In this document: one piece after another, positions 1 through 14,202 of the stretch
How the letters are laid out: each line of letters begins with the position of its first letter
Position numbering within the stretch: position 1 is the stretch's first letter
Assembly (NCBI RefSeq): GCF_000025945.1
Contig: NC_006138.1
Span: forward strand, 1,350,001 to 1,382,000
Direction: 5' to 3'
Source of the DNA: Desulfotalea psychrophila LSv54
GTDB lineage: Bacteria; Desulfobacterota; Desulfobulbia; Desulfobulbales; Desulfocapsaceae
DNA: 32,000 nt
Made by a program: the position numbers and the translations under genes
Notes under the pieces: generated by a model
The model's database searches: none
What the model saw: only the letters and a program-made list of their open reading frames with translations
What the model was told of the DNA's origin: nothing

Positions 1-8
1 TAGCTCTG

Positions 9-1148
9 TTGAGCTCACCGTCCATAATACATGGCAACACTCTCGATCAGGTTGCGGATAAGCTGGTAAAAAGGTTGGAGAGGCAGGTTGAGCTTGAAGG
101 TCTTAATCTTCAGCTGACGCCGTCCAGTTTTTCAGAACAGGGAAGTGGCAGGCAGCACGCTATTGTAGATAGTTTATACGAGGCCGTCTCCGTTGCCCTG
201 AGTGAGAGAGGCGCCTCCCCTTCACTGCATGAGATAGGGGATGAACCGATACGTCTGGTCGGCAGTTACTTAAAAACAGGCAGGTCGCTTGAGATTCATC
301 TGCGTCTGAGAAAGATGGGCAGGCTTGAGAGCAGTGATATAGCCGTTGCTGATTATACAACTTCCATGGCAGGAATTGATTCCCGGCTCTTGGCTAATTC
401 TCTTGATGTGGTTGCTCTGGAGTTAGTTAGGAAAATTGAAAGGACATATGTGGATATGGACGGGGCAAGGCTGATTGTTGAGCAGCCGTTACCGCTTGTT
501 CCCAGCGAGCCAACTCTGCAGTTTGGTTCTGCACTGAAGGCTGCCCTCGAGCGTGCTCTGCTTAGATCTGAAACCTTTGGCGGGGCCCATTTCGGCTCGA
601 CCAGGAATTGTATTAGACTGATCAGTAAATATAATGCGGGAGAGCCTGTGCAGATTGCCGTGACCCTCGAAGGAGAGCAGGAGCTGCCACTTGCCAGCGC
701 TGCCGCCACCCTTGCTCGCGCAGATATCCCGTCTCAATTTTTTGAAATGATTAAGGATCAGGGATCTCGGGTCTGCGTTGCCTATAGGGCAGGATCAAAA
801 AGGGCCGTCTCGTCTCAGTCTCCAACCGTTGAATTCCTTCTCAATCAGCTGGCCGCCTCACTGCACACGGTCAGTATAGAACCGGAAATTTGTGATTCGG
901 GTCAGCGGGGGATTCAGGTGAGCTCTTCACTGAACATAAAGAGGCGGAAGACTGAGGATGGCTATGTCATTTTGTTTGCCGATCTGAATCTTATCATCGA
1001 AAATAATGGTAAAAAAATAGGTACAGTACGTTCGAAGGGCCGTCAGTCAGCCGGGCAAATGGATGATGCTACCAGTCTCCTTCTGGAAAAGCTGTTCACC
1101 CCGGAGCTTGAGCAAAAGCTGGCCAAATATATACTTGGCATAAGGTAG
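9..1148 (+). CDS. hypothetical protein made of three FlgO/LpoB-like alpha/beta modules; possibly 5'-truncated by the window edge
   Basis: 379-codon ORF. The listed start is TTG and the frame stays open back to base 3, so the true start may lie upstream. Three ~110-aa segments repeat the pattern amphipathic helix ... xLxGxY-strand-strand (e.g. IRLVGSYLKTGRSLEIHLRLRK; IRLISKYNAGEPVQIAVTLEG). The fold-family call is pattern recognition, not a search. Confidence 0.55.
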   Translation: MSSPSIIHGNTLDQVADKLVKRLERQVELEGLNLQLTPSSFSEQGSGRQHAIVDSLYEAVSVALSERGASPSLHEIGDEPIRLVGSYLKTGRSLEIHLRLRKMGRLESSDIAVADYTTSMAGIDSRLLANSLDVVALELVRKIERTYVDMDGARLIVEQPLPLVPSEPTLQFGSALKAALERALLRSETFGGAHFGSTRNCIRLISKYNAGEPVQIAVTLEGEQELPLASAAATLARADIPSQFFEMIKDQGSRVCVAYRAGSKRAVSSQSPTVEFLLNQLAASLHTVSIEPEICDSGQRGIQVSSSLNIKRRKTEDGYVILFADLNLIIENNGKKIGTVRSKGRQSAGQMDDATSLLLEKLFTPELEQKLAKYILGIR

Positions 1149-1208
1149 GATTGAATGATGTACAGAGTGGTCAGGATGGTCTCGGGAATTATATCTACGG
1201 AGAGGGAT

Positions 1209-2669
1209 ATGGGTATTGTTGCAAATAGAGTTGTTCTTTTTGTCTTATTAAGCGTTGGCCTCTGTCTAAGCGGCTGTGTTACGGAGAAAGGCGGGTTCGG
1301 GCGGATCAATGATGGTCATCGTCCAGATACCTCCAGAGAGTCAGGCTTTTCCACCCTTTCTGAACTCACCGATATCTTTAGCCGTGATCTTGCCTCGCAG
1401 GTTCAGTCAAAAAAAATTTACCTTGATCGGGCAAAAATCAGAGATGTAAGTACAGGTGATGTTGCTAACTTCTCCTCCTATTTACAGAATGAACTTGAGG
1501 CGTCTTTGAGCAGAACATTTGACCTGCAGGTTGTCCCCGATGGAGCAGATTTGCTTCTTGGCGCAACTTTTCAGAGATACGGTGATCATATAAAAATATT
1601 TTTTAAATATCACTCCCCGGATTTTTCGGTGAATAAGAGTATTGATTATCATATTGAGCAATCAAGAATACCAAGGGATTCCCTGAAAGAGAATTTACAC
1701 TCAAAGGCAAAGCAGCTTGCGGCAAATATTATAGCTGACGATCTTGAGTATAAAATTTATGTAAAGCCCTTTGAATCATCAAGGTATGCATGTGTCTCTC
1801 CATTTTCCCGTATGTTTTCAACCTTGGTTAAAAGTCAAATAGTTCAGATTCACAGGCAGGTGGAAATCATTGATGATTGTCCTGTGAAGGGGAAATTATC
1901 ACACTTGAATAGTGCGGGCAAGAGGGGAAGAGGTGGTGCTGATGATCATTTTGCCGATGCCGATTCGGTGCTTGAGGGTGAATATGTTATCAATGGCGAT
2001 CAGGTTATGGTCACCCTTCTCCTTAAGAGTCTTGATGGGCATGTAATAAACAGTGCTCAGATTGATATTGCATCCTCTATCATCAAAATTCCGCTGGGTG
2101 ATCCGGCCTCGGAAAAACTGGCGGATCTTGCCGATCGCAAAAGTGAAAGGCAGGAGAGAACGGTTAAACGGGTGAAACTCTCCACGGGTAAGGGTGGGGA
2201 TTATCCTGTTTATTTTGAGGGTGAAAAAATTGTCTTCTATGGCCAGGTCAAGGAGCCACTCTTTCTCTATATATACGATATTACCAGCAGGGGTGATGTT
2301 GCCCTTCTCTATCCATATGGTTTCGGAATCGGGCAGAAAAAGGTGAATCCGGGTCGTTTAGTCTCCATCCCGGACGAGGAGGATGGGGTTGATCTCTATG
2401 TCGAGGCACCATTTGGCAAGGATGCTGTCAAGGTTTTCGCAAGTTCAATCGAACTGCCTCTGCCAACCCTCAGTGCTGCGGTGGAGTCGAAGAGTTATGC
2501 CCGGGGCGTACGGGCAATCGGTAAAAAGCGAAAAAGGGTTCAGGGAAGATTAGCGTCCAGGACAGAAATTAATCCCAGTGATCTGGTCGACTACTATCGG
2601 GGACTGGCCGAGCGGTTTGACATTAAAATTTATGAAGACAGCATTTTGCTGGAAACAAGATCAAGATAG
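1209..2669 (+). CDS. lipoprotein with two FlgO/LpoB-like modules and a C-terminal DUF4384-like domain
   Basis: Lies in ORF 1155-2669. The ATG at 1209 follows GGAGAGGG (1199-1206) and gives MGIVANRVVLFVLLSVGLCLSGC, a signal peptide plus lipobox. The C-terminal YPVYFEGEKIVFYGQVKEPLFLYIYDITSRGDVALLYPY...VSIPDEEDGVDLYVEAPFGKDAVKVFAS fits the DUF4384 pattern that usually accompanies bacterial caspase-domain genes. Confidence 0.7.
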   Translation: MGIVANRVVLFVLLSVGLCLSGCVTEKGGFGRINDGHRPDTSRESGFSTLSELTDIFSRDLASQVQSKKIYLDRAKIRDVSTGDVANFSSYLQNELEASLSRTFDLQVVPDGADLLLGATFQRYGDHIKIFFKYHSPDFSVNKSIDYHIEQSRIPRDSLKENLHSKAKQLAANIIADDLEYKIYVKPFESSRYACVSPFSRMFSTLVKSQIVQIHRQVEIIDDCPVKGKLSHLNSAGKRGRGGADDHFADADSVLEGEYVINGDQVMVTLLLKSLDGHVINSAQIDIASSIIKIPLGDPASEKLADLADRKSERQERTVKRVKLSTGKGGDYPVYFEGEKIVFYGQVKEPLFLYIYDITSRGDVALLYPYGFGIGQKKVNPGRLVSIPDEEDGVDLYVEAPFGKDAVKVFASSIELPLPTLSAAVESKSYARGVRAIGKKRKRVQGRLASRTEINPSDLVDYYRGLAERFDIKIYEDSILLETRSR

Positions 2670-2682
2670 GGGAAGAGGTGCC

Positions 2683-3357
2683 ATGCAGAGAAAACTTTTG
2701 CTTACAGCGGTCGTTAGTCTGATCTGGAGCATGCCCGCCCTTGCCGTAGGTCCTGCCTTTGTTGAAAGTGCAGATGAGATGGTTGAGCAGATGCTTGGTG
2801 GCAGAGAGAGTAGGCAGGCAGAGGGCTTTGTTGTAGGCGGGGAGGACAACAGTAGCCGGACAAGGGGCTTTGTGGTAGGCGGGGACCAGGGGCTAACCAG
2901 GTCTTTTACTGTGGTGGAACCCAAGACCCGTGCCATTAAGGTTCGGGCCAAAAAGGGGGGGCAGGAGCAGACCATTGTCGTTCAGGTGGGGATCGGTCTG
3001 GACCCGGCAGCAAGGCTTAAGGTTGAATTTGACCTGAATTCGGCGAGGCTTCGCCGCTCAGCATATCCACTTTTAGCAGAACTTGCCAGGGCCCTGGAGG
3101 ATGAGAGGGTGGTAGAGCACCAGGTCTGCATAAAGGGTCATACTGACAGCGCTGGTGCTGGCAGCTATAACTTGCAGCTCTCCTATAGCCGGGCAAATGC
3201 CGTGAGAGACTATCTGGCCGGTGCGGGCATGTCTGTCGATAAACTTGAGGTCTTCGGTTATGGCGAGAATATGCCGCTTGTCACCAATAGCAGTGAGGCT
3301 AACAGGCAGCTCAATCGCAGAGTTGAGGTGTCGCTTAACTGTCCAGAAATAAATTAG
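2683..3357 (+). CDS. OmpA-family (OmpA/MotB/Pal-type) peptidoglycan-binding protein, exported
   Basis: The ATG at 2683 follows GGAAGAGG and gives the signal peptide MQRKLLLTAVVSLIWSMPALA. The C-terminal ~110 aa carry OmpA_C-like motifs (FDLNSARL...GHTDSAGAGSYNLQLSYSRANAVRDYL...FGYGENMPL...NRRVEV). A short internal direct repeat GFVVGG(E/D) occurs twice. The 2578-2682 part of the ORF overlaps the previous gene and is not used. Confidence 0.85.
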   Translation: MQRKLLLTAVVSLIWSMPALAVGPAFVESADEMVEQMLGGRESRQAEGFVVGGEDNSSRTRGFVVGGDQGLTRSFTVVEPKTRAIKVRAKKGGQEQTIVVQVGIGLDPAARLKVEFDLNSARLRRSAYPLLAELARALEDERVVEHQVCIKGHTDSAGAGSYNLQLSYSRANAVRDYLAGAGMSVDKLEVFGYGENMPLVTNSSEANRQLNRRVEVSLNCPEIN

Positions 3358-3397
3358 ATTTTGATTTAGGCTAATTATCTCTTTATACTGAAAAAGA

Positions 3398-4339
3398 GTG
3401 AGTGGAAATATGCTGAAGAGTCTCTGTCTCCTTGTGACAATATTTTTCTGTTCTGTCGCTCTACCTGGACTTGCCGCAGAGAGGGTGGCTCTGGTGATTG
3501 GTAATGGTGCCTATAAAGATGCACCGCTGACAAATCCCGTAAACGATGCAGATGATATGGTGGCCCTGTTAAAAGGTTTGGGCTTTAAGGTTATTAAGGT
3601 GATCAATGCCGATAAGCGGGAGATGCTTACGGCCCTGGGTAAATTTTCTCGGGAGTTGCCGTCATCGGAAATAGGCCTCTTTTATTTTGCCGGGCATGAC
3701 ATACAGATCAACACTCGCAACTATCTGCTGCCTGTCGTAACAACCCCTGTAAACGCGGTTCTTGCAGTGCAGGCCAGGGCTTTGCCCAGATGGATGCACC
3801 CAAGGCTACCATTATTGCCTATGCAACGGGTCCCGGTTCAGTGGCAGCAGACGGGGCCGGCAGAAACGGTCTCTTTACCAAGCATCTGCTCTCCGCCTTT
3901 AAGGCTCCCGGTCTTGATATCCAAAGGATCTTTAACAGGGCGGGGATGGGGGTAATGGAGGAAACTGCCGAGAGACAGATTCCTTCGACCTCCAATATCC
4001 CGATTCCGGATTACTCCCTGACAGCTCAGTCCCTCCCCCCCTGACTACCCTTGATCCTGAAGAGAAACTTTGGCTTGCCGTCAGAAAGCTTGGCGATCTT
4101 GCCGCCTTTGCAACTTATCTGGCCGAGTATCCCTCTGGCAGGTTTGTAAGGGTTGTGAAACTACAGATAAAATGCTCAAGAAGGAGGTTGTTGCCACAGG
4201 CGATTCCTTTGGCGGTGGTCATTGTTATGAGAGGCCTGTGCATGAAGTCTGTGTAGATGGTTTTTCCCTGGCAGAAAAATTTAATCGGTCGGTCTCTGCA
4301 GGTAAAAGATGTCAAATCTATTGCGCCACTGTTACTTAG
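3398..4339 (+). pseudogene. disrupted caspase-like (peptidase C14) gene with remnant of a C-terminal FGE/SUMF1-type domain
   Basis: Frame A (3398-) encodes a signal/TM segment plus the start of a caspase domain: RVALVIGNGAYKDAPLTNPVNDADDM...LFYFAGHDIQINTRNYLLP. The catalytic-Cys motif ACRNNP and the rest (MDAPKATIIAYATGPGSVAADGAGRNGLFTKHLL...) sit in frame B (open 3700-4044). About 40 aa normally found between these blocks are absent. After a C7 run (4035-4041) a third frame encodes EEKLWLAVRKLGDLAAFATYLAEYPSGRF. A fourth piece (frame of 4070-4339) has ERPVHEVCVDGF, which is typical of the start of an FGE-sulfatase domain, and then stops. Confidence 0.7.
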
Positions 4340-4486
4340 CCATAGGCTAAAGTTATTTTTTTTGCAAATAGCTGATCAATTTTTTTTGTTAAAGATTGTT
4401 TGTGAAATTGGTATTATAGGGATTTTGTTGATTGTTTTTTGTAAGAGATGTTTTTTTAAAAAAATTTATCCTTCGATAATTAAAAT

Positions 4487-5215
4487 ATGGAAAAGAAAGA
4501 TCAGGACATGATAGTTGGTGTTGCCAGGAAGCTGTATCACAATTATGTGGCTGGTAGCGCGTCTGAGGTTGGGATCAGCGTGGAAGATTTGATTCAAACA
4601 GGCATAATCGGTTATCTGGAAGCTAAGAGTCGGCTTGATAAAGAAAAAGGTGATGGCAAGGCATTTATTTTTATGCGGATGAAGGGCAACCAGCTGTCGT
4701 TGATACGCAGGCAGGCACTTGTTCGCATGCCCCAGAAAACATACGCAAAGGTAAAAGAACTGCTGGCAGTAAGAAAGCAGCTTGAGGCAAGCTGTGTGGA
4801 GGCAACGGATCAGTTACTTGCCGAGAGACTTGGCTGGACAGTAAAGGAAATACATCAACTACTGGCCTCCGTACCTCGGGTCTTTTCCTCCGATGATGTC
4901 ACCGACAATGAGGAGAGCAGTGATTTTTATGAGAGCCATTTTCTGCCGGGGCAAAACCCACAACCCCTCATTAGTGAAATGGAAAAAAAAGAAATTGCTG
5001 ATCTCATCCAAGGCTGTTTAGCGCGACTGGAGAATCCGCGGCAACGCTTGATTTTAGTGGCGAAATATTTTGAAGGCATAAACGTTAAAAAACTTGCAGA
5101 TCGATTTGGTTGCTCTAGGTACTTTGTTGAATCTGAGGAGCAAAAGGGTCTTGGCCAGATGCAGACCTGCCTTGAAAAAAGTGGCTGGCAATGGGACGGG
5201 GCAGAAATCGATTAG
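4487..5215 (+). CDS. sigma-70 family RNA polymerase sigma factor, FliA/sigma-28-like (regions 2, 3 and 4)
   Basis: 242 aa. Region 2-like: ISVEDLIQTGIIGYLEAKSRLDKEKGDGKAFIFMRMKGNQLSLIRR. Region 3-like: PQKTYAKVKELLAVRKQLE...ATDQLLAERLGWTVKEIHQLL. Region 4-like: LENPRQRLILVAKYFEGINVKKLADRFGCS. It is preceded by a very AT-rich 150-nt region (4340-4486). Confidence 0.75.
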   Translation: MEKKDQDMIVGVARKLYHNYVAGSASEVGISVEDLIQTGIIGYLEAKSRLDKEKGDGKAFIFMRMKGNQLSLIRRQALVRMPQKTYAKVKELLAVRKQLEASCVEATDQLLAERLGWTVKEIHQLLASVPRVFSSDDVTDNEESSDFYESHFLPGQNPQPLISEMEKKEIADLIQGCLARLENPRQRLILVAKYFEGINVKKLADRFGCSRYFVESEEQKGLGQMQTCLEKSGWQWDGAEID

Positions 5216-5234
5216 CTTTGTGAATGGAGGAGTT

Positions 5235-5801
5235 ATGGAAAAATTTCCCAAGATGGATTTGCGACAGGGAATGGAAATATGGAAGGAGCAGGCCCAGTCT
5301 CAGGCGGATGCAACTCATCTGTCAGAGGAGGAGTTGGCCCGGGCCGCAGTTCATGGAGGCTTGGCTGAGCTTGATGGATATCTCATTGAGCATTTGGCAT
5401 CCTGTCCTGTCTGTTTGGCAAAATGGGTTGCTGCCTGCAGAGATATCGATATGAGCAAAGATGAGTTTGCCTATGATACTGCAGACGACTGGTATAGTGG
5501 TGGCCTGCTTGAGGCTGCTGCCACGTCAGGGAGCAGATTACCTGCAGTGCTTCTCAGCAGGTGTGGTAATTTTAATCTACGGATTTTTCCGGATGAAAAG
5601 AGTACTGGGGCGATGGTGGCTCTTGAGACTCGTAACCCTTCAGCAACAGGACGCAGCGAGGGTAAAATGGTCACCGTTCAGGATGCTGAGGGTAAAATTA
5701 TTGTCGAAGGTAAAATTATTTCTGGCCGGTTTGCCCGAATGGTTGATAATCTCGATGGTTTTAATTTACAGGTCTGGTCATTAATGATCAAGCAGGGGTA
5801 A
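5235..5801 (+). CDS. putative anti-sigma factor (zinc-binding HxxxCxxC motif), no obvious TM segment
   Basis: The ATG at 5235 follows GGAGG (5226-5230) and lies 20 nt after the sigma gene stop. The motif is EHLASCPVCLAKW (H-x3-C-x2-C, ZAS-type). Its position immediately downstream of a sigma gene is typical of anti-sigma factors. The 5094-5234 part of the ORF overlaps the sigma gene. Confidence 0.55.
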   Translation: MEKFPKMDLRQGMEIWKEQAQSQADATHLSEEELARAAVHGGLAELDGYLIEHLASCPVCLAKWVAACRDIDMSKDEFAYDTADDWYSGGLLEAAATSGSRLPAVLLSRCGNFNLRIFPDEKSTGAMVALETRNPSATGRSEGKMVTVQDAEGKIIVEGKIISGRFARMVDNLDGFNLQVWSLMIKQG

Positions 5802-5805
5802 TGCA

Positions 5806-6663
5806 TTGGGAACGGTAAAAAAATGTACTCATTTGGAACCATCTTCTCTTCTTTTTCCCTTTGCAAGTGGTAATCTTGCAGAAATTGAGCTCTCCTTTTA
5901 TGTCAACTCCGGTAAGAGGGATGGACGTCCTATTACTACCTACCCGCTTGATAATGTTAGTCCGGATCTGGATCAGAGCGTCAGGTATGCCGCTGAAGTT
6001 GCCTATCGCCTTGCCCTTCAATCATCTAAGCTTGGGGAGATCTCTTATGCTGCCGGTTATAGGCTGAAAAACATGGAGGGAGAGACCTCGTTGACTGGGG
6101 AAAGCGCTGGTCTTGCCATGGCCTTGGCTCTTTATAGTGAGCTGACCTCTATACATCTGGGCAGGGTTGTTGCAACTGGAGCCTTAACAGGATTAGGAGA
6201 CGGTGGTACTGTCTCCTGGGTGGGTGAGGTGCCCGCAAAACTTCTTGGCGCTCTGGATGGTCTTGAGAGCGGTGATAGCATGTTCTACCCGCTTGCCAAC
6301 GTCTCCCAGGTTACCGATGTCCTTAAAAAAAAGTATGTGGAGAGAGGAATCAGATTAATTGCTGTTGGCAGTGTAGAGGAGGCTCTAAATTATTTTCCGA
6401 GTCTTTCTTGCCCGTCACAGGAGCTGGTGAAAAAGAGCAGGTGTGTTCCTGCCCTAGCTATTATTTTGCTGGTTGGGATGCTACTGGTGGGTGGCTATGT
6501 GTTGGGTGAGCATGATAACGACCTTGCTGAAGGGAATGTGATCATAGAGGAATCTTCTGTTGACAAGGTTAGGGGGAGGATAAAATCTTTTGAAGCTTAT
6601 AATGATCAGGGCGATAAACCTGCTCCGTCAGCGCAAAAAGATAATTCTTTCGGTTTTGAATAG
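5806..6663 (+). CDS. membrane-anchored Lon-type (S16) Ser-Lys protease domain protein without AAA+ module
   Basis: TTG start 5 nt after the anti-sigma stop; the next in-frame ATG is at codon 89. LTGESAGLAMALALYSELT...VATGALTG...GTVSWVGEVPAKLLGALDG aligns by eye to the E. coli Lon proteolytic domain (GPSAGIAM...[25 protein letters not shown]), with the catalytic Ser and Lys in place. A single TM follows (CVPALAIILLVGMLLVGGYVLG), then a ~50-aa acidic tail ending FGFE. Confidence 0.7.
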   Translation: MGTVKKCTHLEPSSLLFPFASGNLAEIELSFYVNSGKRDGRPITTYPLDNVSPDLDQSVRYAAEVAYRLALQSSKLGEISYAAGYRLKNMEGETSLTGESAGLAMALALYSELTSIHLGRVVATGALTGLGDGGTVSWVGEVPAKLLGALDGLESGDSMFYPLANVSQVTDVLKKKYVERGIRLIAVGSVEEALNYFPSLSCPSQELVKKSRCVPALAIILLVGMLLVGGYVLGEHDNDLAEGNVIIEESSVDKVRGRIKSFEAYNDQGDKPAPSAQKDNSFGFE

Positions 6664-6680
6664 GGCGGCTGGTGCAAAAT

Positions 6681-6707
6681 CCCCTCGTTCTCATAGAGAA
6701 TAAGGGG
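6681..6707. terminator. hairpin between convergent genes (possible bidirectional terminator)
   Basis: CCCCTCGTTCTC-ATA-GAGAATAAGGGG forms a 12-position stem with one mismatch and one G-U pair. It is flanked by AAAAT on the left and CTTTA on the right, and lies between the stops at 6663 (+) and 6728 (-). Confidence 0.45.
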
Positions 6708-6727
6708 CTTTATGTATAAGAGTTGAT

Positions 6728-7786
6728 TTATTCAAATGTCCCGGACATCTCCAGATCTCTTACCAACTCCCGGTCGAGGACGAACTGAACTTCTCGACTG
6801 GTGGCATCACCGGGGCGCACACCCTTGAGCATATCAATCTCTGCCTGGGTGTAGCGATATGGCACACCCTTCATTACGATCTCACCACCGTTTGCGCTGA
6901 TGTCGTTGAGCATCTTCATGATGTTGGCCTGCAGGACAAATGGATCGGTACCGCTGATATTTACCCGCCAGCTAACGTAGGATGCCTGAGGGTTATCGGG
7001 CACAATACGCTGACCATAGTTCTTGGCGTAATTAACGCCATTGGCCGTTTTGAGTACCTTGCCAAATACCTCGACGATGGCATATTCGGTTACACCATCA
7101 AGTTTAATGCTTAGATATTGCTCGTGTTGCTTGAAATTTCTGGCAAGGGCGCCGCCAGTTGCCGGGGCGGTATGAACCGCCGGTCTTACCACTCTCCTGT
7201 TTGATCTGTGACCATTCCAGGCGGTGAGTTTACGGCCAACCAGATCGCCAACCTCTTTTTCAACCTCGGCAATTGCGTCATCACAATCACGGCGGGTTAC
7301 CTTAAAGGTTTTTGACATGCCAACTCCAAGGTCATGGCCTGCAGAGTCATATCCCTCACCGTCAAGTCGGGCGGATGCCTTGCAATAGCCATCACTGGTT
7401 TTCCTTACCTTAACCTTCAGCCAACTGATATAGGCTGCATCTGTGGCGTATTTTCTACATACCTCAAGGCTGGCAAGGGCAGAGTCCTCATGGCTACGCT
7501 CCATGACCCGGTTATACTCACGTTCTGATGCATCACCTGCAAAGGGGTTTACAACTTCAAAGTTATGGCGTACCAGTTGGTTATTGATAAAACGCATCAT
7601 TCTGCGATAATGAAGTGTTGAACTGCCACCATCGTTTGCATCGTCACCTGCCTCAACATAGAAGGGCAGGACTACAATTCTGATTGGCTCGCTGTTGGCG
7701 CTGGCTACGGTAAAGGTCAACAGGGTTAACATTGTTGCTAACATGGCTGCCGCTACTGCTCTTACTGCTTTTTTTTTCGTTGTCAT
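6728..7786 (-). CDS. exported hypothetical protein (FlgO/LpoB/CsgG-N-like N-terminal module), C-terminus GTFE
   Basis: 352 aa. Signal peptide MTTKKKAVRAVAAAMLATMLTLLTFTVASA. IRIVVLPFYVE... is typical of periplasmic alpha/beta tether modules. RBS GGAGAG upstream (reverse complement of ctctcc at 7791-7796). Confidence 0.7.
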   Translation of the reverse strand: MTTKKKAVRAVAAAMLATMLTLLTFTVASANSEPIRIVVLPFYVEAGDDANDGGSSTLHYRRMMRFINNQLVRHNFEVVNPFAGDASEREYNRVMERSHEDSALASLEVCRKYATDAAYISWLKVKVRKTSDGYCKASARLDGEGYDSAGHDLGVGMSKTFKVTRRDCDDAIAEVEKEVGDLVGRKLTAWNGHRSNRRVVRPAVHTAPATGGALARNFKQHEQYLSIKLDGVTEYAIVEVFGKVLKTANGVNYAKNYGQRIVPDNPQASYVSWRVNISGTDPFVLQANIMKMLNDISANGGEIVMKGVPYRYTQAEIDMLKGVRPGDATSREVQFVLDRELVRDLEMSGTFE

Positions 7787-8044
7787 TATCTCTCCTGAAT
7801 AATTAAATGCCTTTTTTCCTTGAGTTGCAATCCTTATCCTCTGTTAATGTGGCTTGCCCGACCCTGTTCTCTCCAGTGTCCTTTAGCTCCGAATAATATA
7901 GACCTGTGCCCCTCTTTACAGGGATCTCCTAACCATTGCCAGAGAGCTCTTTACAGCTATAAGTGGGGTTCTGTTTAATATATCGTTCTTTCTATCAGGT
8001 CAAGTTTGTTTGTTAAATTATATAGTTCGAGCTATAATCTGCCT

Positions 8045-8173
8045 CTCCACGCTTAATCCACCCTGCCCTATCGAAGAAGAAGATATTTATGCAAAAAACA
8101 AATTCAGTTTTTTGCATAAAAAATGGACTATTGCCACCGCCTCCAGATCAGGGGCAAAGTGCCGGTGGCTTTT
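8045..8173 (+). ncRNA. candidate small RNA (promoter-like TTGTTA-17-TATAAT to GC hairpin + T4); speculative
   Basis: -35 TTGTTA (8010-8015), exactly 17 nt of spacer, -10 TATAAT (8033-8038). Internal 14-bp AT-rich hairpin at 8086-8120. GCCACCG (8133-8139) pairs with CGGTGGC (8163-8169) and is followed by TTTT (8170-8173). It lies in a 412-nt non-coding gap, antisense to the flanking genes. Confidence 0.2.
8086..8120. repeat. perfect 14-bp inverted repeat with 7-nt spacer
   Basis: TTTATGCAAAAAAC-AAATTCA-GTTTTTTGCATAAA, read directly from the sequence. Confidence 0.6.
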
Positions 8174-8198
8174 GGGGGAGCATGTCGCTGGCTAGTCT

Positions 8199-9449
8199 CT
8201 ACTCAAAACCACGATTAAAGGTGACCTGAAGGCTATCGTCTGTAACAGGGGTGAAGCTATAGTTATATATGCCCTCACTGTTCATTTCATTTGCCAGCCA
8301 TGAGATCAGCTCATCCATTTGCCATAGGCTCTTTTGTCTGAGGGAAAGGCTGTAGCAGACAGATGATCTTGAGCCTGTGGTGGATTGGTCGTAACGCCGC
8401 CTTATGTCGGTCAGTCCCGGCAATCCCTTCAGTACGGGATAGATCTTTTGCGCAAAATTGTCTCTGTAGTGATAAAAGCAGATCTGATATCCATCCCCTG
8501 TCTCAGAGCGAGAGGCTTGCTCAGCTCTCTCCCAGCCGGCAACAGTCTCCAGAGACACATATGCCTCGGTTTCTCTGCCGGGGACAAATATACCATTTTC
8601 CTTATACTTGGATGTTAGCCACACCTGATAAAGTCCACCATAAATCTGATGCGCCTTAATGTGGATACGGATATTGGCCTGTCTGGGATTATCTGTGACA
8701 GTTACCTCTCTATATCGTGCCAGGTAGTTTTTCAGTATCCCGAAAGAGTTTTTGAAATAGGGGCTATTGTCGGGGGAGTCCTGTTCTACATAGACAATAG
8801 TCTCATCGCTTTCCATATTGGCAAAAAGGCAACTGAGGTTTTTTGCGAGATAGGCAGCCAGCAGATCGCCCTGCCTTTTATTAAAGGGAAGGGGACGCAG
8901 ACCGAGGAGAAATTCATCCGCTGAGCTTTGCAGAAGAGCCCTCTGCTGTCCACGGCTTAGTCTGCCACGCCAGGAGAGACCAAAGCCTGTGACCCATGAT
9001 TTCGCCTTGATATCAAGGGCTCTGATATTTACCTTGAACACGCCATCGACAGAGGTTCTTGAGATATCAATACCCACATAATATTTTTCTCTCTGGCTTG
9101 CATTACACTCTACATCTTCAAGACTGGTGTGATGTTTGGGGGCTGCGGCAGATGGCCTCCAGACCAGGCCTATGCCCTGCTTTCTGAGCAGTCCATCTAT
9201 GATATCTTCACGTAGCTGGATGGTGAGGGCATCAATTTCTGTCTCTATATTATCCCGATCCATGGAGACGATTAAAAACGGTTCACCCTTAAATCTCGGG
9301 TTATCCCCCAGCTCATGAACGAGGTAGGGGATGGCTTGTTGGTCCAGCCACTCTTCAAGGGTGTGCTGTTGTGCCTGTATGCCACCTGTTCTGGCACAGC
9401 CGGAGAGGTAGATGCCGGCAAATAGAATAAACAGAAGGGTACGTTTCAT
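8199..9449 (-). CDS. lipoprotein with two FlgO/LpoB-like modules, C-terminus RGFE
   Basis: 416 aa. MKRTLLFILFAGIYLSGC is a signal peptide plus lipobox. Module signatures include EPFLIVSMDRDN...LTIQLREDIIDGLL and ANIRIHIKAHQIYGGLYQVWLTSKY. It lies 30 nt downstream of the SLT gene. Confidence 0.75.
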   Translation of the reverse strand: MKRTLLFILFAGIYLSGCARTGGIQAQQHTLEEWLDQQAIPYLVHELGDNPRFKGEPFLIVSMDRDNIETEIDALTIQLREDIIDGLLRKQGIGLVWRPSAAAPKHHTSLEDVECNASQREKYYVGIDISRTSVDGVFKVNIRALDIKAKSWVTGFGLSWRGRLSRGQQRALLQSSADEFLLGLRPLPFNKRQGDLLAAYLAKNLSCLFANMESDETIVYVEQDSPDNSPYFKNSFGILKNYLARYREVTVTDNPRQANIRIHIKAHQIYGGLYQVWLTSKYKENGIFVPGRETEAYVSLETVAGWERAEQASRSETGDGYQICFYHYRDNFAQKIYPVLKGLPGLTDIRRRYDQSTTGSRSSVCYSLSLRQKSLWQMDELISWLANEMNSEGIYNYSFTPVTDDSLQVTFNRGFE

Positions 9450-9479
9450 TGTTTTGTTCCTTATTAGTCTTCTTATCCG

Positions 9480-10349
9480 TCACATGAACTTCTTGTTAGG
9501 GTCTAGGTAATATCCAAGTTTTGCCATTTTTGCCAGACTGCTCTTCTTCTCCTCTTCTGTATTGAAGAGAAGAACCACAAAACTTTCACCTAACCTGTTT
9601 CTGAACCAGTCAAGCTGTACTTCCGGGGCGCGGGTGTAGAAGTAATCAATAAATTTTTCTGCAAGAAATGGATCATGAAAGAGAAGTACCGGGATTTTAT
9701 GTTTTGCGATGTACTTAGGTCTTCTTCTGGGCTTAGGTAGTCTCTTGCCTGCCTGGGCCACCATATACTGTTCGGAGATGATGCCTCTGCCCGATATATC
9801 CAGAACAGTTTTGAGATGATGGTAGATATAGCCGCTGTACCAGTTTGCTCCCTCCGGGATATTTCTGCTCTTTTGTTTAATACGACCGGGCCCGTAATTG
9901 TAGGCGGCCAGGGCCAGGTGAATATTCCCCCTGTACCGGTCCAGCATCATCCTTATATATCTTGCCCCGGCCATTATATTCCTGCATGGATCATAGAGCT
10001 GGGCAAGAGAGGTAAACCCCAGATCTTTAGCCGTTCCCGGCCAGTGAATCTGCATGATGCCGTAACAGGCGGCAGATGATTTGGCCCGTGGGTTGAAATC
10101 TGATTCGCCTTTGGCTATGGAGAGGAGGAGGGTGACAGGTATGTCGTATCGTTTGGCCGCCTTTTCAAAGCAGATCTGGTAGGGAAAGCTCTTGGCAGGC
10201 GACAGCTTAATCGCCCGTTTCTGGTAGTTTTGCCATGCGCAGTTATAGTCAAGTTTTTGGATCGTCTGTCTTGCCTTTCCTTCACCTTGAAAGAGGACCG
10301 TCCATACGAATATGGCAAAACAGATGGTAAAGATAAGTTTTATTTTCAT
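9480..10349 (-). CDS. lytic transglycosylase (SLT domain) with C-terminal SPOR-like domain
   Basis: Signal peptide MKIKLIFTICFAIFVWTVLFQG. SLT motifs: AKGESDFNPRAKSSAACYGIMQI (catalytic Glu-Ser) and LALAAYNYGPGRI. The C-terminal ~70 aa (IPVLLFHDPFLAEKFIDYF...FVVLLFNTEEEKKSSLAKMAKLGYY) have a beta-alpha-beta-beta-alpha-beta, SPOR-like pattern. Confidence 0.85.
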   Translation of the reverse strand: MKIKLIFTICFAIFVWTVLFQGEGKARQTIQKLDYNCAWQNYQKRAIKLSPAKSFPYQICFEKAAKRYDIPVTLLLSIAKGESDFNPRAKSSAACYGIMQIHWPGTAKDLGFTSLAQLYDPCRNIMAGARYIRMMLDRYRGNIHLALAAYNYGPGRIKQKSRNIPEGANWYSGYIYHHLKTVLDISGRGIISEQYMVAQAGKRLPKPRRRPKYIAKHKIPVLLFHDPFLAEKFIDYFYTRAPEVQLDWFRNRLGESFVVLLFNTEEEKKSSLAKMAKLGYYLDPNKKFM

Positions 10350-10362
10350 GGCGGCCTTGCCT

Positions 10363-11304
10363 CTACTCCAGGGTTATTTGGTTGTCAGCATGAATTGTTA
10401 TATCGCCACCCTTGCCTTTGCCCATCAGCTCCGTAAGCTGTCTGTGGATGCCAGGAGATAAATGTACTCCGTATGTAACAGCACCCTGCTTGAAGGCAGC
10501 TACGGAACGCCTGCCTGCGCGAATAACAGAGCCTGGGACAGTACTCTGATTTATTTCGTATATTTGTTGTGGTGGGGCCGAGGGAATAAAGCTGAGTTTT
10601 CCGCCCCTGCTCACCTGGAGCTTCCAGCTTTTTGTCTTGGCAAGCATAAAGAGCTCTACCTGTCCCCCCTGACCTACCATTTGCAGCAGGGTATTGTTTG
10701 AGGCGAAACCCAGGGTGAATCCCTTCTTTCTATCTGGTGCAGGCCTTGCCTCAGCGACTCTATGCTGCTTTTTAGCCTCTGCTATTTTTCCTTGAAGTAC
10801 CCGTAACTCTTTTTCTGTGAGCTGTTTTTTTATGAGGTATTGATTCTTGCCGGTCTCTGCTTTCCTCTGTAATTCGTTAAGGGCCCCTTGCTGAGTAAGA
10901 AAAGCCTCTGTCTGCAGCCTCTCCTCTGCCTGCATCCCAGCAAGATTGTCCTGCAGGATCTGCTCCCGTTCTTCCAGCTTTTCTATCTTGGCAGCCAGAG
11001 TTTCAAGCTCTTTAATGCCCCTCTGTAGTTTTTGTTTTTTTGTCTGGATCTCTGATTCAAAGAGAGCTGCCCGGCGAATGAGCTGAGCCAGCTGCTCTTT
11101 TAAGTCCTCAACCTCTTGCGGGCTCGTTTTCGTTTCTAATTCAGGGCGACTATTTTGGGGCTGAAGAGGTATTGCTTGAACCAGCGCGAAAATGACCATT
11201 AAACACATGCAGATAATGGCGAAAAAACGCATAACATCTGTTTGCAGGGTCTCTGTCTCATCACTTCCCTGATTATGGCGAAAGCGTGCGGTACCTGTCC
11301 TCAT
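10363..11304 (-). CDS. single-pass membrane protein: ExbD/TolR/MotB-type Asp-bearing TM + ~130-aa coiled coil + C-terminal globular domain
   Basis: 313 aa. The start overlaps the upstream stop (ATGA at 11301-11304). TLQTDVMRFFAIICMCLMVIFALV resembles E. coli ExbD TPFIDVMLVLLIIFMV and MotB YADFMTAMMAFFLV, with Asp23 at the cytoplasmic edge of the TM. Residues ~60-190 are heptad-rich in E/K/Q/L. Confidence 0.55.
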   Translation of the reverse strand: MRTGTARFRHNQGSDETETLQTDVMRFFAIICMCLMVIFALVQAIPLQPQNSRPELETKTSPQEVEDLKEQLAQLIRRAALFESEIQTKKQKLQRGIKELETLAAKIEKLEEREQILQDNLAGMQAEERLQTEAFLTQQGALNELQRKAETGKNQYLIKKQLTEKELRVLQGKIAEAKKQHRVAEARPAPDRKKGFTLGFASNNTLLQMVGQGGQVELFMLAKTKSWKLQVSRGGKLSFIPSAPPQQIYEINQSTVPGSVIRAGRRSVAAFKQGAVTYGVHLSPGIHRQLTELMGKGKGGDITIHADNQITLE

Positions 11305-11945
11305 GTTGTTCCCCGCTCATCTTTGAGAAGAGAGGCAATATTGTCAAGTTTTGCTATGATTTCCAGGTGTTCAGAGAGCTGTTGGCCAATTGCAAATTTA
11401 TAGAGTTTACTGCCCAGCATCCATGCCTTTATCATGCGCATCAGGTATCCACCGATGCCGCCAACAATTGTCGTTGACAGTGAGAGGAGGATGCCTCCAT
11501 CAATAAGTTCTTTAAGTATACTGAAGGCCCCTTTTTGGGCAGCGGTATCTGCATCCAGGCTGCCCAGCGAAACAAGAAGTGCGTTGCGCATGCCGATTGC
11601 AGTCCAGATGACACCGATGCCGAAGAAAAGGGTGATAAGGAGATCAATCTTTTCTTCAAGTGGATATATCTTTTCGGGGGATGTGGCTGTGCTATCAAGA
11701 GCCCTCTGCAGGCGAAAAAGATATAAGATGTAGAGGCAGGCTATCAGGGCAAAGGGGATAATCGAGAATCCTAAGTTGTCGTGGCACCAGTATAGAACGG
11801 GGATGAGGCTGAGGCTGTTTGTTGAGCTGATTGCCACTGTTCCCGATATGTTGAGAATATAGATAAGGGCTGCAACTGAAATTACGCCTAACATCATGCC
11901 GGCGAGATAGCTGCCGGCGTTTTGTTTCATTGTTTTGTTTTTCAT
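11301..11945 (-). CDS. MotA/TolQ/ExbB proton-channel family protein
   Basis: Lies in ORF 11301-11984. The ATG at 11945 avoids overlap with the upstream gene (stop at 11960). The start is uncertain; 11930 is also possible. Multi-TM. LFFGIGVIWTAIGMRNAL...LIDGGILLSLSTTIVGGIGGYLMRMI matches the conserved GTVxGM...GIxxALxTTxxGL core of the family. Confidence 0.65.
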   Translation of the reverse strand: MKNKTMKQNAGSYLAGMMLGVISVAALIYILNISGTVAISSTNSLSLIPVLYWCHDNLGFSIIPFALIACLYILYLFRLQRALDSTATSPEKIYPLEEKIDLLITLFFGIGVIWTAIGMRNALLVSLGSLDADTAAQKGAFSILKELIDGGILLSLSTTIVGGIGGYLMRMIKAWMLGSKLYKFAIGQQLSEHLEIIAKLDNIASLLKDERGTT

Positions 11946-11959
11946 AGCTCTAGCCCGTT

Positions 11960-12523
11960 TTATTCGGCCTGACACGCATCGCATGCGGCTTCCATGATGA
12001 GGTCAAGCTTGGTGAGGTCGTCGCTGGCCTTTGCATAGGTAACCTTGTCATTTGCTGCCCCGACCAGACCTCTTTCTTTGTCGGCAAGTTCTGCCTGCCA
12101 GTCACCTCGAAGGGACTTGAGATTTGAGCAGTAACTGCATGTCTGGTAGTCATCGGGCAGGGATATAAACCTGTGCGAGAAGTAGCGGGTGTAGTATTCT
12201 TTTGCCTGTATCTTGCTGATTATACCCTGGCTTTTTGCCCAGACGAGCAGCTTGCTGAACTTCTCTTTGTTTGCTTCTGTCGGATCTCCTTCGCTGATAT
12301 CCAGGAGGGTTTTGAAAATTGTCTCAAACTGATAGCTGCACTCCCGGTTTGCAAGTGTTTGCCGGGCCGTTGCAAAGGCAGGGTCCAGCAGGTAACCTGA
12401 GGGGAGCTGGCAAACTGGCTCTGGCACTGAATTCGTGTGAGTGGTGGATGCACATCCTGTGGTGATGGTGGCCATGGTTGCCGCTACTACAAAAACTTTT
12501 ATTCCGTTAATTATTTTTTTCAT
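11960..12523 (-). CDS. Cys-rich lipoprotein, unknown function, C-terminus CQAE
   Basis: 187 aa. MKKIINGIKVFVVAATMATITTGC is a signal peptide plus lipobox. The mature part has seven further Cys, including CSYC and CDAC pairs. Confidence 0.7.
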   Translation of the reverse strand: MKKIINGIKVFVVAATMATITTGCASTTHTNSVPEPVCQLPSGYLLDPAFATARQTLANRECSYQFETIFKTLLDISEGDPTEANKEKFSKLLVWAKSQGIISKIQAKEYYTRYFSHRFISLPDDYQTCSYCSNLKSLRGDWQAELADKERGLVGAANDKVTYAKASDDLTKLDLIMEAACDACQAE

Positions 12524-12556
12524 CTCTTTTTCTCCTATTCAATGATTTTGTCTTGT

Positions 12557-13345
12557 CTATTCCATTTCAAGAGGGCTTTGGAAACCACCCTGCTCACTGC
12601 TGCCAATAACGGGGAGTGAGCCTTCCTCCTCAATTTCACCAAAAACAACTGCCTTAACAGCGCTGACCGTGCTGAGCATTTCCGGGGTTAAGGTGCCATA
12701 CATCTGGCCAATGCGGTGCATGGTTTCCTGTTGGACGATTTCAGCTTCCATGATGTCAATCATATTGAGGACCGCCCCGCTATCAAGGTAGATTTCTGAG
12801 GCGAGTGAGGCGAGGTTGGTGTTGCCGCCGCGACTGATCATACTGTGATACTGAGCAAATCTGGTTGAGAGTGAATAGCGGCCCTTGTAAACCTTTGGCT
12901 TGGTAGTATTGCTGAGCAGGCGCTGAATACCGGCAGGTGTGGTCTTTTTGCCGATCTCTTTTCTCAGGTTTTTCTCAATCCCCTTATTTGTTGCAGAAAT
13001 GGACTGTTTGATCTCAGGAAGGTTCTCCTTCATGATAGAGAGCATCTCCATATAGCTGTCTCCCATCTGTTTTGATATTTCCAGACATCCGGGGTCACTT
13101 GAGCCTTCACAGCCGGTTTCCTGGTAGAGGCGTTGTTGCGTTTCGAGTTTGCCGATGGTGGCTTTAAGGCTGCTTTCCATGTTGCCGGCCACCTCGCCTG
13201 TATGGCTTAACTGTTCTGTTACATCTGTGGGGAAGAGGTTCAAAACAGGTTTTGAGTTTGCCGCCTGAGCATTCATGGCTGGAAGGGCAGCTCCGAAAAG
13301 AAAAATAAAGGCGGTGGCTGTAGCTATTTTTTTTCTGATTTTCAT
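12557..13345 (-). CDS. exported, predominantly helical hypothetical protein, C-terminus LEME
   Basis: Lies in ORF 12557-13384. The ATG at 13345 follows AAGGAG and gives MKIRKKIATATAFIFLFGAALPAMNAQA (signal peptide). I recognise no family. Confidence 0.7.
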   Translation of the reverse strand: MKIRKKIATATAFIFLFGAALPAMNAQAANSKPVLNLFPTDVTEQLSHTGEVAGNMESSLKATIGKLETQQRLYQETGCEGSSDPGCLEISKQMGDSYMEMLSIMKENLPEIKQSISATNKGIEKNLRKEIGKKTTPAGIQRLLSNTTKPKVYKGRYSLSTRFAQYHSMISRGGNTNLASLASEIYLDSGAVLNMIDIMEAEIVQQETMHRIGQMYGTLTPEMLSTVSAVKAVVFGEIEEEGSLPVIGSSEQGGFQSPLEME

Positions 13346-13370
13346 TTGTGGTCTCCTTTGAGAGGTCGGT

Positions 13371-13955
13371 TTATAGAGAGACACCTGTCTCTTTTATAAG
13401 TTCAATACTGTTAGCTTTTTCTGCTTCGCTGGAATAGTTGAAGTAAACCTGATATGTTCCAGGCCCTGTTTTTTCAGCAAGACATTCGATACCGCTATTT
13501 TTTGTTATGTATGCGGCAAATCTATCGGCCTTGTTCATCAGTGAGAATGGTTTCCAGAAAAAATGTTTTTCGCCTGCTACATCATCAACGATTATCACCT
13601 CATCTACCGGCATGGTGATTGGCGTAGCCAGGATGCTAAGGGCAGGCTCTGGCGTGATCAGTTCGGGCTCTGCCGTGATCAGTTCGGGCTCTGCCGTGAT
13701 CAGTTCGAACCTCTGGCGTGATCTGTTCGCGCCTGTCACTTTCAGCCTCTGGCCAGGCACAATCATCCCTATTCTGCTCAGCCAGGGGAGTGATGCCTGA
13801 TTCTCCTCCGCTAATAACATCAATCCCCTCCGGAGACGGCGCGCCTCTGCTATTTCCCTTCCCTTATTGATGATCAGCTCTGCAAGTTGGGGGTGGGATT
13901 GCCACAAAAGTAAACTGACAAATCCACCGACAATAAAACCGATTATAACTTTCAT
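13371..13955 (-). CDS. single-pass membrane protein with ELITxEP tandem repeats and C-terminal SPOR-like domain
   Basis: Lies in ORF 13371-13967. The ATG at 13955 follows GGAGA and gives MKVIIGFIVGGFVSLLLW (TM). The alternative start is 13967. The C-terminal FFWKPFSLMNKADRFAAYITKNSGIECLAEKTGPGTYQVYFNYSSEAEKANSIELIKETG fits the SPOR pattern. This is the first gene of the minus-strand block. Confidence 0.7.
   Translation of the reverse strand: MKVIIGFIVGGFVSLLLWQSHPQLAELIINKGREIAEARRLRRGLMLLAEENQASLPWLSRIGMIVPGQRLKVTGANRSRQRFELITAEPELITAEPELITPEPALSILATPITMPVDEVIIVDDVAGEKHFFWKPFSLMNKADRFAAYITKNSGIECLAEKTGPGTYQVYFNYSSEAEKANSIELIKETGVSL
13645..13707 (-). repeat. 3 x 21-bp in-frame tandem repeat inside the CDS
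   Basis: The plus-strand unit is GGCTCTG(G/C)CGTGATCAGTTCG at 13645-13665, 13666-13686 and 13687-13707. It encodes ELIT(A/P)EP three times. A degenerate fourth copy lies at 13709-13729. Confidence 0.9.
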
Positions 13956-14202
13956 ATATTTCTCCATAATTGTTTAGCATTATCAGCTTTCTCAAGAGAG
14001 GTATCGTTGATTATTTTCGTTTTTCAAAAAACAAAATATTTTTTGAGAAAAGGGGGCGCTCCACCCTCTGTCTCAGCGAGGTGCATGAGTTGTTTCTGTA
14101 TCGTGAAGCAGGGTGGAGGGGGGCCTTGGTATTATACCAATATAACTGTTAATTTGCTTGGATGAACGAAGGGGAGAGCGGCCTGCTCAGGCGGGGGCAA
14201 CG

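Follow-up and report, generated by a model that had tools for sequence, protein, structure and literature searches.

A previously unnamed and plausibly ion-driven envelope system in Desulfotalea psychrophila and related loci

Which envelope system is encoded at the left end of a 32-kb stretch of Desulfotalea psychrophila LSv54 DNA (NC_006138.1, positions 1,350,001 to 1,382,000), and could it be driven by ions? This whole stretch is called the window below, and all coordinates are positions within it. A listing of its open reading frames (ORFs) revealed two convergent blocks in the first 14 kb, with seven plus-strand genes (A1–A7) facing eight genes on the minus strand (B8 to B1; Table 1). A first-pass annotation of the sequence had read all of them as one linked machine with an ExbB/TolQ/MotA-like channel and its own sigma/anti-sigma/protease module. 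Our analysis points to a previously unnamed envelope system that is plausibly ion-driven and stands a considerable chance of proving categorically new. We read it as a multi-protein system built round the pair B5/B4 and most likely driven by ions, to which we assign a probability of about 0.5. Its core machine would comprise the inner-membrane pair B5/B4, the secreted protein B7, the lipoproteins B6 and B2, an SLT lytic transglycosylase of its own (B3), and the bitopic protein B8.

A core operon and its clade-specific neighbors

One genome per species was scanned for relatives of B5, which resulted in 309 species encoding such a protein, and the best 80 loci were fetched. About 30 of these belong to Desulfobacterota and 50 to Gammaproteobacteria, the latter including Methylococcales, Woeseiaceae, Ectothiorhodospiraceae, Chromatiales, and Thiogranum. 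A tblastn comparison of the window proteins with the 80 loci detected B4 in 77, B6 in 76, B7 in 73, B2 in 64, B3 in 55, and B8 in 25 of them. In the well-flanked subset of 41 loci, defined by at least 2.5 kb of sequence upstream and at least 5 kb downstream, B7, B6, and B4 were present throughout and B3 was found in 36 (for B2, see Table 1). Using a hidden Markov model (HMM) of the C-terminal domain of B8, domains of this type were identified in 46 of the 80 loci in addition to the window. The genes follow the fixed order B7-B6-B5-B4-B2-(B8)-B3, which reads B8-B7-B6-B5-B4-B3-B2-B1 in the clade of the window. Based on these counts and on the fixed order across Desulfobacterota and Gammaproteobacteria, the core is a real operon conserved in two phyla, so that the linkage on which the first-pass annotation had made its proposal depend was indeed found outside this genome.

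The widely conserved core comprises only about 5.8 kb (8199-13967). Plus-strand genes were found by direct similarity in just 0–10 of the 41 well-flanked loci, and the 14 kb are therefore not one universal unit; of the linkage proposed for the entire 14 kb, the part concerning the core stands, and the plus-strand genes turned out to be clade-specific. Their low counts would fit a chance juxtaposition of unrelated envelope genes. This explanation is refuted for the core by its conserved order in two phyla, and the recurrence of the accessories beside the core in related clades, together with a sequence motif before both blocks (see below), argues against it for the remaining genes as well, so that we consider it hardly credible. 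Thus, the plus-strand genes are clade-specific accessories and not random neighbors.

In four relatives (L001, L002, L004, and L081), the sigma, anti-sigma, and Lon-like genes are contiguous, on the same strand, and located immediately upstream of B8, with A1 upstream of these, and in L004, a contig of 12 kb, the stretch with B2 and B1 also contains, interspersed with these, a gene of the OmpA type and an intact caspase-FGE gene. The window harbors the same gene set as Desulfobacter-type loci with the core inverted. A further 17 Desulfobacterales loci possess sigma-like and HxxxCxxC genes before the core and caspase-DUF4384, OmpA, and caspase genes after it. The gammaproteobacterial version consists of the core only, and neither similarity searches nor ORF clustering revealed a caspase or sigma gene there. 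Its flanks are housekeeping genes conserved within families, e.g., feoB, an aminotransferase gene, and a cation diffusion facilitator (CDF) transporter gene in Woeseiaceae, which is evidence against a mobile defense island. Two gammaproteobacterial chromosomes (L029 and L077) carried B7-B6-B5-B4 followed by large ORFs (600 and 964 amino acids, aa) instead of B2 and the SLT gene, an arrangement that may represent a further architectural variant.

The B5/B4 pair and the proteins around it

Read from its sequence, B5 has four hydrophobic segments with both termini inside (N-in, C-in), and B4 is an N-in protein with one transmembrane (TM) segment. This is the topology of MotA and MotB, an N-in four-TM protein paired with an N-in one-TM protein. 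In B5, TM3 (GVIWTAIGMR) and TM4 (LSLSTTIVGGIGG) are near-invariant, including residues T128, S170, T171, and T172. In B4, Asp23 at the cytoplasmic end of the TM segment is retained in all 68 interpretable homologs (68/68), inside the invariant motif E-x-LQTD-V-MRF. It is characteristic of 5:2 motors that the neighboring gene encodes a bitopic protein whose TM segment has a conserved acidic residue close to its cytoplasmic end, and B4 shows this feature; moreover, the stop codon of B5 overlaps the start codon of B4 (NTGA) in 31 of 52 loci. The AlphaFold2 (AF2) monomer of B5 displays long helices with a mean predicted local distance difference test (pLDDT) score of 78.6, and 29 of its 50 top Foldseek matches in the PDB were ExbB, TolQ, MotA, PomA, or ZorA chains, aligned over about 170–226 columns. 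Furthermore, one source names a B5 homolog of 52% identity (P0042) 'MotA/TolQ/ExbB proton channel domain-containing'.

Several results weigh against B5/B4 as a motor. The Foldseek matches of B5 are non-significant, with E-values of 0.28–1.5 and TM-scores of about 0.2. The Pfam model MotA_ExbB (PF01618) remained unmatched in the window B5 and 51 homologs at E ≤ 1, and the precomputed Pfam tables contained not even faint matches to it. With an HMM of the B5 family, no chain of ExbB, TolQ, or MotA was retrieved from the PDB at E ≤ 10, hhalign of B5 with an alignment of ExbB and TolQ reached a probability of 0.2% in several settings, and direct HMM scores were about 0 bits; the ExbB sequence used was 100% identical to PDB 5sv0, and those of TolQ and MotA were provisional. 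A HMMER search of 1.84 billion cluster representatives with B5 resulted in an isolated family of 240 clusters showing no bridge to the MotA/ExbB superfamily. As for B4, the Pfam scan of the window protein and 35 homologs revealed no ExbD (PF02472), TolR, or OmpA-type domain, only coiled-coil noise, and the same scan of the 35 homologs for TonB-type domains also yielded coiled-coil noise only. Foldseek with the AF2 model of B4 (mean pLDDT 82, above 90 in the C-terminal domain) gave no significant match in the PDB, and the C-terminal domain matched no solved fold. Lastly, B5 is almost devoid of a cytoplasmic domain, and there is therefore nothing obvious for a rotating pentamer to engage in the cytoplasm.

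Altogether, the assignment of the 227-aa B5 to the MotA/TolQ/ExbB family, as proposed earlier, found no support in any sequence-profile test, with the weak Foldseek matches remaining. Of the proposed ExbD/TolR/MotB-type partner, the Asp residue and the single TM segment could be verified, and the ExbD- or OmpA-type domain could not. Based on the topology, the invariant Asp, the translational coupling, and the non-significant fold matches, we put the chance that B5/B4 works like a stator at about one half.

The negative MotA/ExbB and ExbD profile tests and the isolation of the B5 family also support another explanation, namely a complex for peptidoglycan remodeling or scaffolding without motor function or energy coupling, in which B5/B4, as anchors in the style of MreD/MreC or FtsB/L/Q, would keep the SLT, the lipoproteins, and the B8-type domain at one particular place. 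A layout of TM segment, coiled coil, and alpha/beta domain, as in B4, is common in divisome and elongasome scaffolds, and the SLT with the B8-type targeting domain that it shares is the sole enzymatic or recognizable part of the core. However, plain anchors rarely conserve an acidic residue without exception, together with a near-invariant motif flanking it, where the membrane begins, as B4 does, or two near-invariant polar TM helices in the partner, as seen for TM3 and TM4 of B5. In addition, the Foldseek list of B5 was dominated by motor A subunits and not by MreD- or FtsX-like proteins, and no core protein matched the MreC, MreD, or Fts families. We regard an anchor function without a motor as the leading alternative, although as rather unlikely.

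If B5/B4 is a motor, the pair may belong to a new, highly divergent ion-motor family or be an independent invention of the same layout, with a coiled-coil axle that drives a process at the peptidoglycan and outer membrane via B7, B6, and B2. We put this forward tentatively, and the same tentative proposal includes B7, B6, and B2 as three protein families found nowhere else. In such a motor, B5 would surround a B4 dimer, as MotA, ExbB, and TolQ surround MotB, ExbD, and TolR, and Asp23 of B4 would take up a proton or Na+ arriving along the invariant Thr/Ser faces of TM3 and TM4 of B5. The resulting movement would pass along the 95-residue periplasmic helix of B4, about 14 nm long at 1.5 Å per residue, which would bring the conserved C-terminal domain toward the peptidoglycan and outer membrane with B7, B6, and B2 as partners. 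The SLT, positioned by the B8-type domain, would open the peptidoglycan locally. Specialized SLTs are known to clear peptidoglycan for flagella and secretion systems, and the NCBIfam models closest to B3 include transglycosylases of flagellar assembly and of the type III secretion system (T3SS).

The ORFs were scanned with Pfam, NCBIfam, and PADLOC, the latter covering B1–B8, A1, and A7. Within this scope, no family match was obtained for A1, A6, B1, B2, B4, B5, B6, B7, or B8. Profile searches of the PDB with B7, B8, B2, and the isolated B8-type domain also found nothing, no relative of known structure or name was found for B6 and B7, and all homologs of B7 are annotated as hypothetical. The domain content of the core lipoprotein varies, since a C-terminal DUF4384 was present in 10 of 26 B2 homologs and absent from B2 of the window.

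The HMM of the B8 domain matched the C-termini of SLT proteins in 16 loci, and judged by this sequence similarity, the C-terminal domains of B8 and the SLT are members of one family. They had been described before as two SPOR-like domains, and the common family holds, but it is not detectably SPOR. Only 2 of 23 B8 homologs matched SPOR (PF05036), with E-values of at least 0.09, no structure of a SPOR domain was retrieved from the PDB with the B8-type domain HMM at E ≤ 10, and an hhalign comparison with three provisional SPOR sequences was not significant; the beta-alpha-beta-beta-alpha-beta spacing is an impression from the alignment only. Thus, the label SPOR finds no significant support in Pfam, PDB profile search, or hhalign. 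The linker of B8, which is highly variable in length and sequence across homologs, contains in the window a tandem repeat of four 21-nt units (13645-13729, 90% match) encoding ELITAEP repeats.

Table 1. Positions of the genes and sequence elements of the cluster within the window
Feature	Description	Position	Strand	Basis or remark
A1	Accessory protein	9-1148	+	No Pfam/NCBIfam match; probably cut by left window edge
A2	Lipoprotein (lipobox LSGC) with C-terminal DUF4384	1155-2669	+	PF14326 2.5e-18, residues 353-431
A3	Secreted OmpA-family peptidoglycan-binding protein	2683-3357	+	PF00691 2.6e-19
A4	Pseudogene of secreted caspase (C14) + FGE-sulfatase protein	3398-4340 (end approximate)	+	Caspase halves in two frames
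Motif	Promoter-like motif TTTTTTTAAAAAAATTTATCCTTCGATAA	4451-4479	+	Upstream of sigma gene A5
A5	Group-3, sigma-28-like sigma factor	4487-5215	+	Sigma-70 regions 2, 3, 4
A6	Putative anti-sigma factor, zinc-type HxxxCxxC	5235-5801	+	HLASCPVC in translation; directly after sigma gene
A7	Lon-type (S16) protease domain, C-terminal TM anchor, no ATPase domain	5806-6663	+	Lon_C 1.7e-5
Hairpin	Hairpin between convergent blocks	6681-6707	strandless	ViennaRNA -19.2 kcal/mol over surrounding 50-nt segment
B1	Secreted protein, clade-specific accessory	6728-7786	-	No Pfam/NCBIfam/PADLOC match
Inverted repeat	Perfect 14-bp inverted repeat, 7-nt loop, A/T-rich, terminator-like	8086-8120	-	B2-B1 gap; -14.3 kcal/mol
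B2	Core lipoprotein (lipobox LSGC)	8199-9449	-	39/41 well-flanked loci
B3	SLT lytic transglycosylase with B8-type C-terminal domain	9480-10349	-	PF01464 1.5e-27, 96 bits vs cut-off 21.3
B4	Bitopic protein, 313 aa	10363-11304	-	N-terminal motif E-x-LQTD-V-MRF, one TM, ~95-residue periplasmic helix, ~120-residue C-terminal alpha/beta domain
B5	4-TM inner-membrane protein, candidate channel subunit, 227 aa	11301-11984	-	Annotated start probably Met14 at 11945
B6	Cys-rich core lipoprotein	11960-12523	-	Invariant C24 (lipobox), C38, C62, C129, C184
B7	Secreted helical core protein	12557-13384	-	Conserved Cys pair, invariant C92 + C100 among others
B8	Bitopic protein, Pro/Glu-rich linker, ~70-residue conserved C-terminal domain	13371-13967	-	Homolog alignment
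Motif	Promoter-like motif TTTTTTGAAAAACGAAAATAATCAACGATA	14002-14031	-	Upstream of B8, core operon

Shared promoter-like motif and accessory genes

When the sequences that precede B8 and the sigma gene in the window and its relatives were aligned by eye, a common element became apparent, consisting of a T-run, (G/A)AAA, a spacer of 13–15 nt, and (C/T)TCGATA(A/T), which in the window can be summarized as GAAA-N14-TCGATAA. A regular expression for this element has just two matches in the 32 kb, one preceding the sigma gene and the other preceding B8, compared with 0.115 matches in shuffled sequences. Of 19 matches in the 1.16 Mb of fetched loci, eight precede a sigma gene or B8 within the clade of the window (L001, L002, L004, L027, and L081). 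More precisely, the motif precedes the sigma gene in L001, L002, L004, and L081 and B8 in L002, L004, and L027, with degenerate forms before B8 in L001 and L081 (positions, e.g., about 672-700 and about 2810-2838 in L002, and about 1078-1106 and about 3383-3411 in L004). As the motif is common to both blocks, it provides sequence evidence for one regulon. The -10-like TCGATAA element resembles the sigma-28 consensus, GCCGATAA, and is therefore consistent with a FliA/WhiG-like sigma factor such as A5.

In A5, regions 2 and 4 exceeded the Pfam cut-offs and region 3 stayed below; the best specific NCBIfam model was FliA/WhiG (3.7e-18, 66 bits against a cut-off of 189.6). A6, whose ORF is open from 5094 with a likely start at Met48 (5235), matched no Pfam model, and its role as anti-sigma factor is suggested by the HxxxCxxC motif, which is present in the translation as had been stated. 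An HMM of the A6 family matched HxxxCxxC proteins upstream of the core in other Desulfobacterales as well (8e-8 to 5e-3, in a small database). The match of A7 to Lon_C (PF05362) reached 24.9 bits against a cut-off of 21.1 and covered profile positions 102–200 of 205; a Ser-Lys dyad was judged by eye from the motifs GESAG and AKLL, a hydrophobic C-terminal segment was seen, and the A7 homolog in L004 likewise matches Lon_C. In D. psychrophila and its close relatives, the sigma-28-like factor, the zinc-type anti-sigma factor, and the membrane-anchored Lon-like protease would thus control the system via the GAAA-N14-TCGATAA promoters before the sigma gene and the core operon. The earlier proposal that this module is tied to the system gains support from its position beside the core in related Desulfobacterales and from the motif before both blocks. 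No common family was detectable for the sigma factor in the clade of the window and its sigma-like counterpart in the other Desulfobacterales, and therefore no single ancestral sigma factor is claimed. In five Desulfobacterales loci (L009, L015, L020, L033, and L039), genes for an extracytoplasmic function (ECF) sigma factor, a putative anti-sigma factor, and a small Metal_resist/CpxP-like periplasmic protein were found further upstream of the core, with examples of this second regulatory set at L020 5015-6216 and L009 6264-6692.

Besides the regulators, secreted caspase-type proteases with FGE or DUF4384 domains, an OmpA-type protein, and extra lipoproteins would be clade-specific add-ons to the core. 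A1 shares 26% identity with a gene product of L001 (3123-4415), which carries the lipobox IIGC in 48 additional N-terminal residues. Its homologs in Desulfobacter loci are lipoproteins, and they were found near the core in L001, L002, L004, and L081. Given these additional residues, the ORF of A1 probably continues to the left past the end of the window, so that the left boundary of the cluster would lie outside it. The DUF4384 of A2 recurs in B2 homologs and in neighboring caspases of other loci. For A3, whose ORF is open from 2578 with a likely start at Met36 (2683), the best NCBIfam match was a YiaD-type glycine-zipper/OmpA model; it has a signal peptide lacking a lipobox. Among the 41 well-flanked loci, there are 10 in which the SLT gene is followed downstream by an OmpA gene. 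B1 was found after the core in L001, L002, L004, L027, and L081 only.

Alignment of homologs in two frames placed a frameshift near 3730 in A4, from which about 35 residues are missing. Peptidase_C14 is combined with an FGE-sulfatase domain in the intact homologs (L004 10510-12033 and L003 218-2164), in agreement with the decayed caspase-FGE gene described at first. The FGE domains of these two and of a third intact protein (L003 2399-4483) had PorK/GldK as best NCBIfam model (4e-27, below the cut-off). Caspases of other clades carry DUF4384 in place of FGE, and owing to this exchange between clades, both look like interchangeable periplasmic modules. Desulfobacter loci harbor a gene for a secreted trypsin-like serine protease after B1 (L001 15447-16322 and L081 15408-16283). 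Taken together with the Lon-like and caspase genes, proteases therefore seem to be a recurring accessory theme.

These proteases raise the question of whether the cluster serves envelope surveillance or anti-phage defense in the style of Zorya, with a membrane sensor complex that would respond to damage of the envelope by triggering the caspase-type proteases and a sigma response. Caspase-type proteases flank the core in Desulfobacterales with up to three copies, and a sigma/anti-sigma/protease module belongs to the cluster, both of which would fit. We also count in favor of it that DUF4384 is found in Csx30, a protein of type III-E CRISPR loci in which a caspase-like protease and a sigma factor stand together, in Desulfonema (bioRxiv 10.1101/2022.08.17.504292). 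However, PADLOC gave no significant match among the proteins scanned, the sole listed one being coiled-coil noise (JetC, E 0.019), and the gammaproteobacterial version lacks caspase and sigma genes and, with its stable housekeeping flanks, is unlike a defense island. Furthermore, the caspases carry signal peptides and would therefore act in the periplasm, and in the window the caspase gene is decayed whereas the core is intact. A defense function thus appears improbable to us.

The FlgO/LpoB-like modules previously reported in about four proteins could not be reproduced. Neither LpoB, CsgG, nor FlgO profiles matched A1, A2, B1, or B2, and pairwise and profile comparisons gave no significant homology among these four; a weak LpoB/CsgG match appeared solely in a neighboring lipoprotein of a Desulfobacter locus (L001 4480-5583). 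By contrast, the SLT, OmpA, DUF4384, sigma-70, and Lon domains named in the first-pass annotation were all recovered by Pfam (Table 1).

Comparison with named systems and surroundings of the cluster

Like Tol-Pal, the cluster pairs a polytopic inner-membrane protein with a bitopic one that carries an Asp, and has a long helix in the periplasm with a globular end such as that of TolA. Partners in the periplasm and among the lipoproteins, a nearby protein of the OmpA type that binds peptidoglycan, and a connection to peptidoglycan enzymes are further common features. However, models for TolQ, TolR, TolA, TolB, and Pal remained unmatched in 1-14 kb, B4 unites the Asp-bearing TM segment and the long helix in one protein, and B5 has four TM segments and a tiny cytoplasmic part. 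Moreover, the OmpA protein is not a lipoprotein here and stands outside the universal core, and a dedicated SLT is built in. The likeness to MotAB/PomAB lies in the N-in four-TM B5 with conserved TM3 and TM4, the Asp of B4 at the cytoplasmic TM end, and the adjacent, often overlapping genes. In contrast to these stators, neither MotA_ExbB nor MotB/OmpA was matched, the large loop with which MotA engages FliG in the cytoplasm is missing from B5, flagellar genes are absent, and the C-terminal domain of B4 is not an OmpA-like peptidoglycan binder.

GldLM/PorLM also possess a single-TM partner with a long periplasmic extension toward outer-membrane lipoproteins. PorK/GldK, as mentioned above, is the closest model to the FGE domain of the accessory caspase-FGE homologs, and the OmpA-type protein nearby, along with faint TPR matches in L082, is reminiscent of PorE. 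Nevertheless, NCBIfam at E ≤ 0.1 yielded no GldL or GldM match for B5 or B4, no type IX secretion system (T9SS) translocon was found, and the phyla differ, with Bacteroidota on the one side and Desulfobacterota and Gammaproteobacteria on the other. In the T9SS motor, an Arg of GldM and a Glu of GldL carry the charges, whereas the Asp is located on the single-TM partner here. Zorya resembles the cluster in having a candidate stator-like pair outside motility and transport operons, and ZorA was among the weak Foldseek matches. In this case, PADLOC revealed no ZorA–D match in B1–B8, A1, and A7, no nuclease or helicase domain was detected in 1-14 kb, and the coiled coil is periplasmic on the B-like subunit instead of cytoplasmic on the A subunit, in a conserved chromosomal context. 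Regarding the regulators, pairs of the FliA/FlgM type and those with zinc anti-sigma factors are similar to A5/A6 in regions 2/3/4 with FliA/WhiG as closest model, in the -10-like TCGATAA element, and in HxxxCxxC. They differ in that A5 stays below the family cut-offs, flagellar genes are absent, and the pair is accompanied by a membrane-anchored Lon-domain protease without ATPase. In line with the first reading, no named system fits, since the models of Tol-Pal, Ton, flagellar stators, Zorya, and T9SS were all unmatched.

Literature searches for a named system resulted in no paper naming the cluster, nor do two recent surveys, which deal with homologs of stators and with force transducers of the periplasm, describe it. 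The stator-homolog survey reportedly used sequence search and would therefore miss B5. In general, the cluster is invisible to family-based surveys because most core proteins match no Pfam model. To our knowledge, the ion-driven envelope motors are a handful, namely Mot, Ton, Tol, Agl, GldLM, and Zorya, each of which opened a field. According to recent surveys, further ion-driven motors remain to be found (PMC12204202). If B5/B4 is a motor, Desulfobacterota and Gammaproteobacteria living in sediments would possess a new trans-envelope machine equipped with a wall-cutting enzyme of its own, to which some clades would add their own sigma factor and periplasmic caspases. The carriers of the cluster are about 300 species of environmentally important bacteria of the sulfur and methane cycles. 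A peptidoglycan enzyme is built in, and the dedicated sigma factor with a recognizable promoter offers a handle for studying its regulation. Even without a motor, there would be several new envelope protein families that always travel together and a new wall-associated domain common to B8 and the SLT.

In the layout of the window, signal peptides, lipoboxes, or TM segments were read from the translations of 12 of the 15 products, which agrees with the statement that nearly all of them carry one, and the ORF coordinates together with the calculated fold bear out that the two blocks converge on the hairpin. This hairpin is likely a two-way terminator and was left uncalled in the terminator scan because it lacks a clean T run. 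Intergenic gaps in the minus block (13967-8199) ranged from -25 to 33 nt with the starts of the ORF finder, so that the upper bound of the earlier range of -4 to 33 nt is retained and its lower bound is corrected. A gap of 412 nt separates B2 from B1, and the inverted repeat within it suggests separate transcription of B1. An Rfam scan of 1-16 kb matched no family. Past 14 kb, the window continues with unrelated housekeeping genes, i.e., HPP, two hcp, msrAB, a Na/H exchanger, ABC transporters, and gshAB. The two hcp genes, which encode hybrid-cluster (prismane) proteins, are divergent (15084-16799, minus strand, and 17148-18857, plus strand) and followed by msrAB; this neighborhood bears no relation to the envelope cluster and is an ordinary region for oxidative and nitrosative stress.

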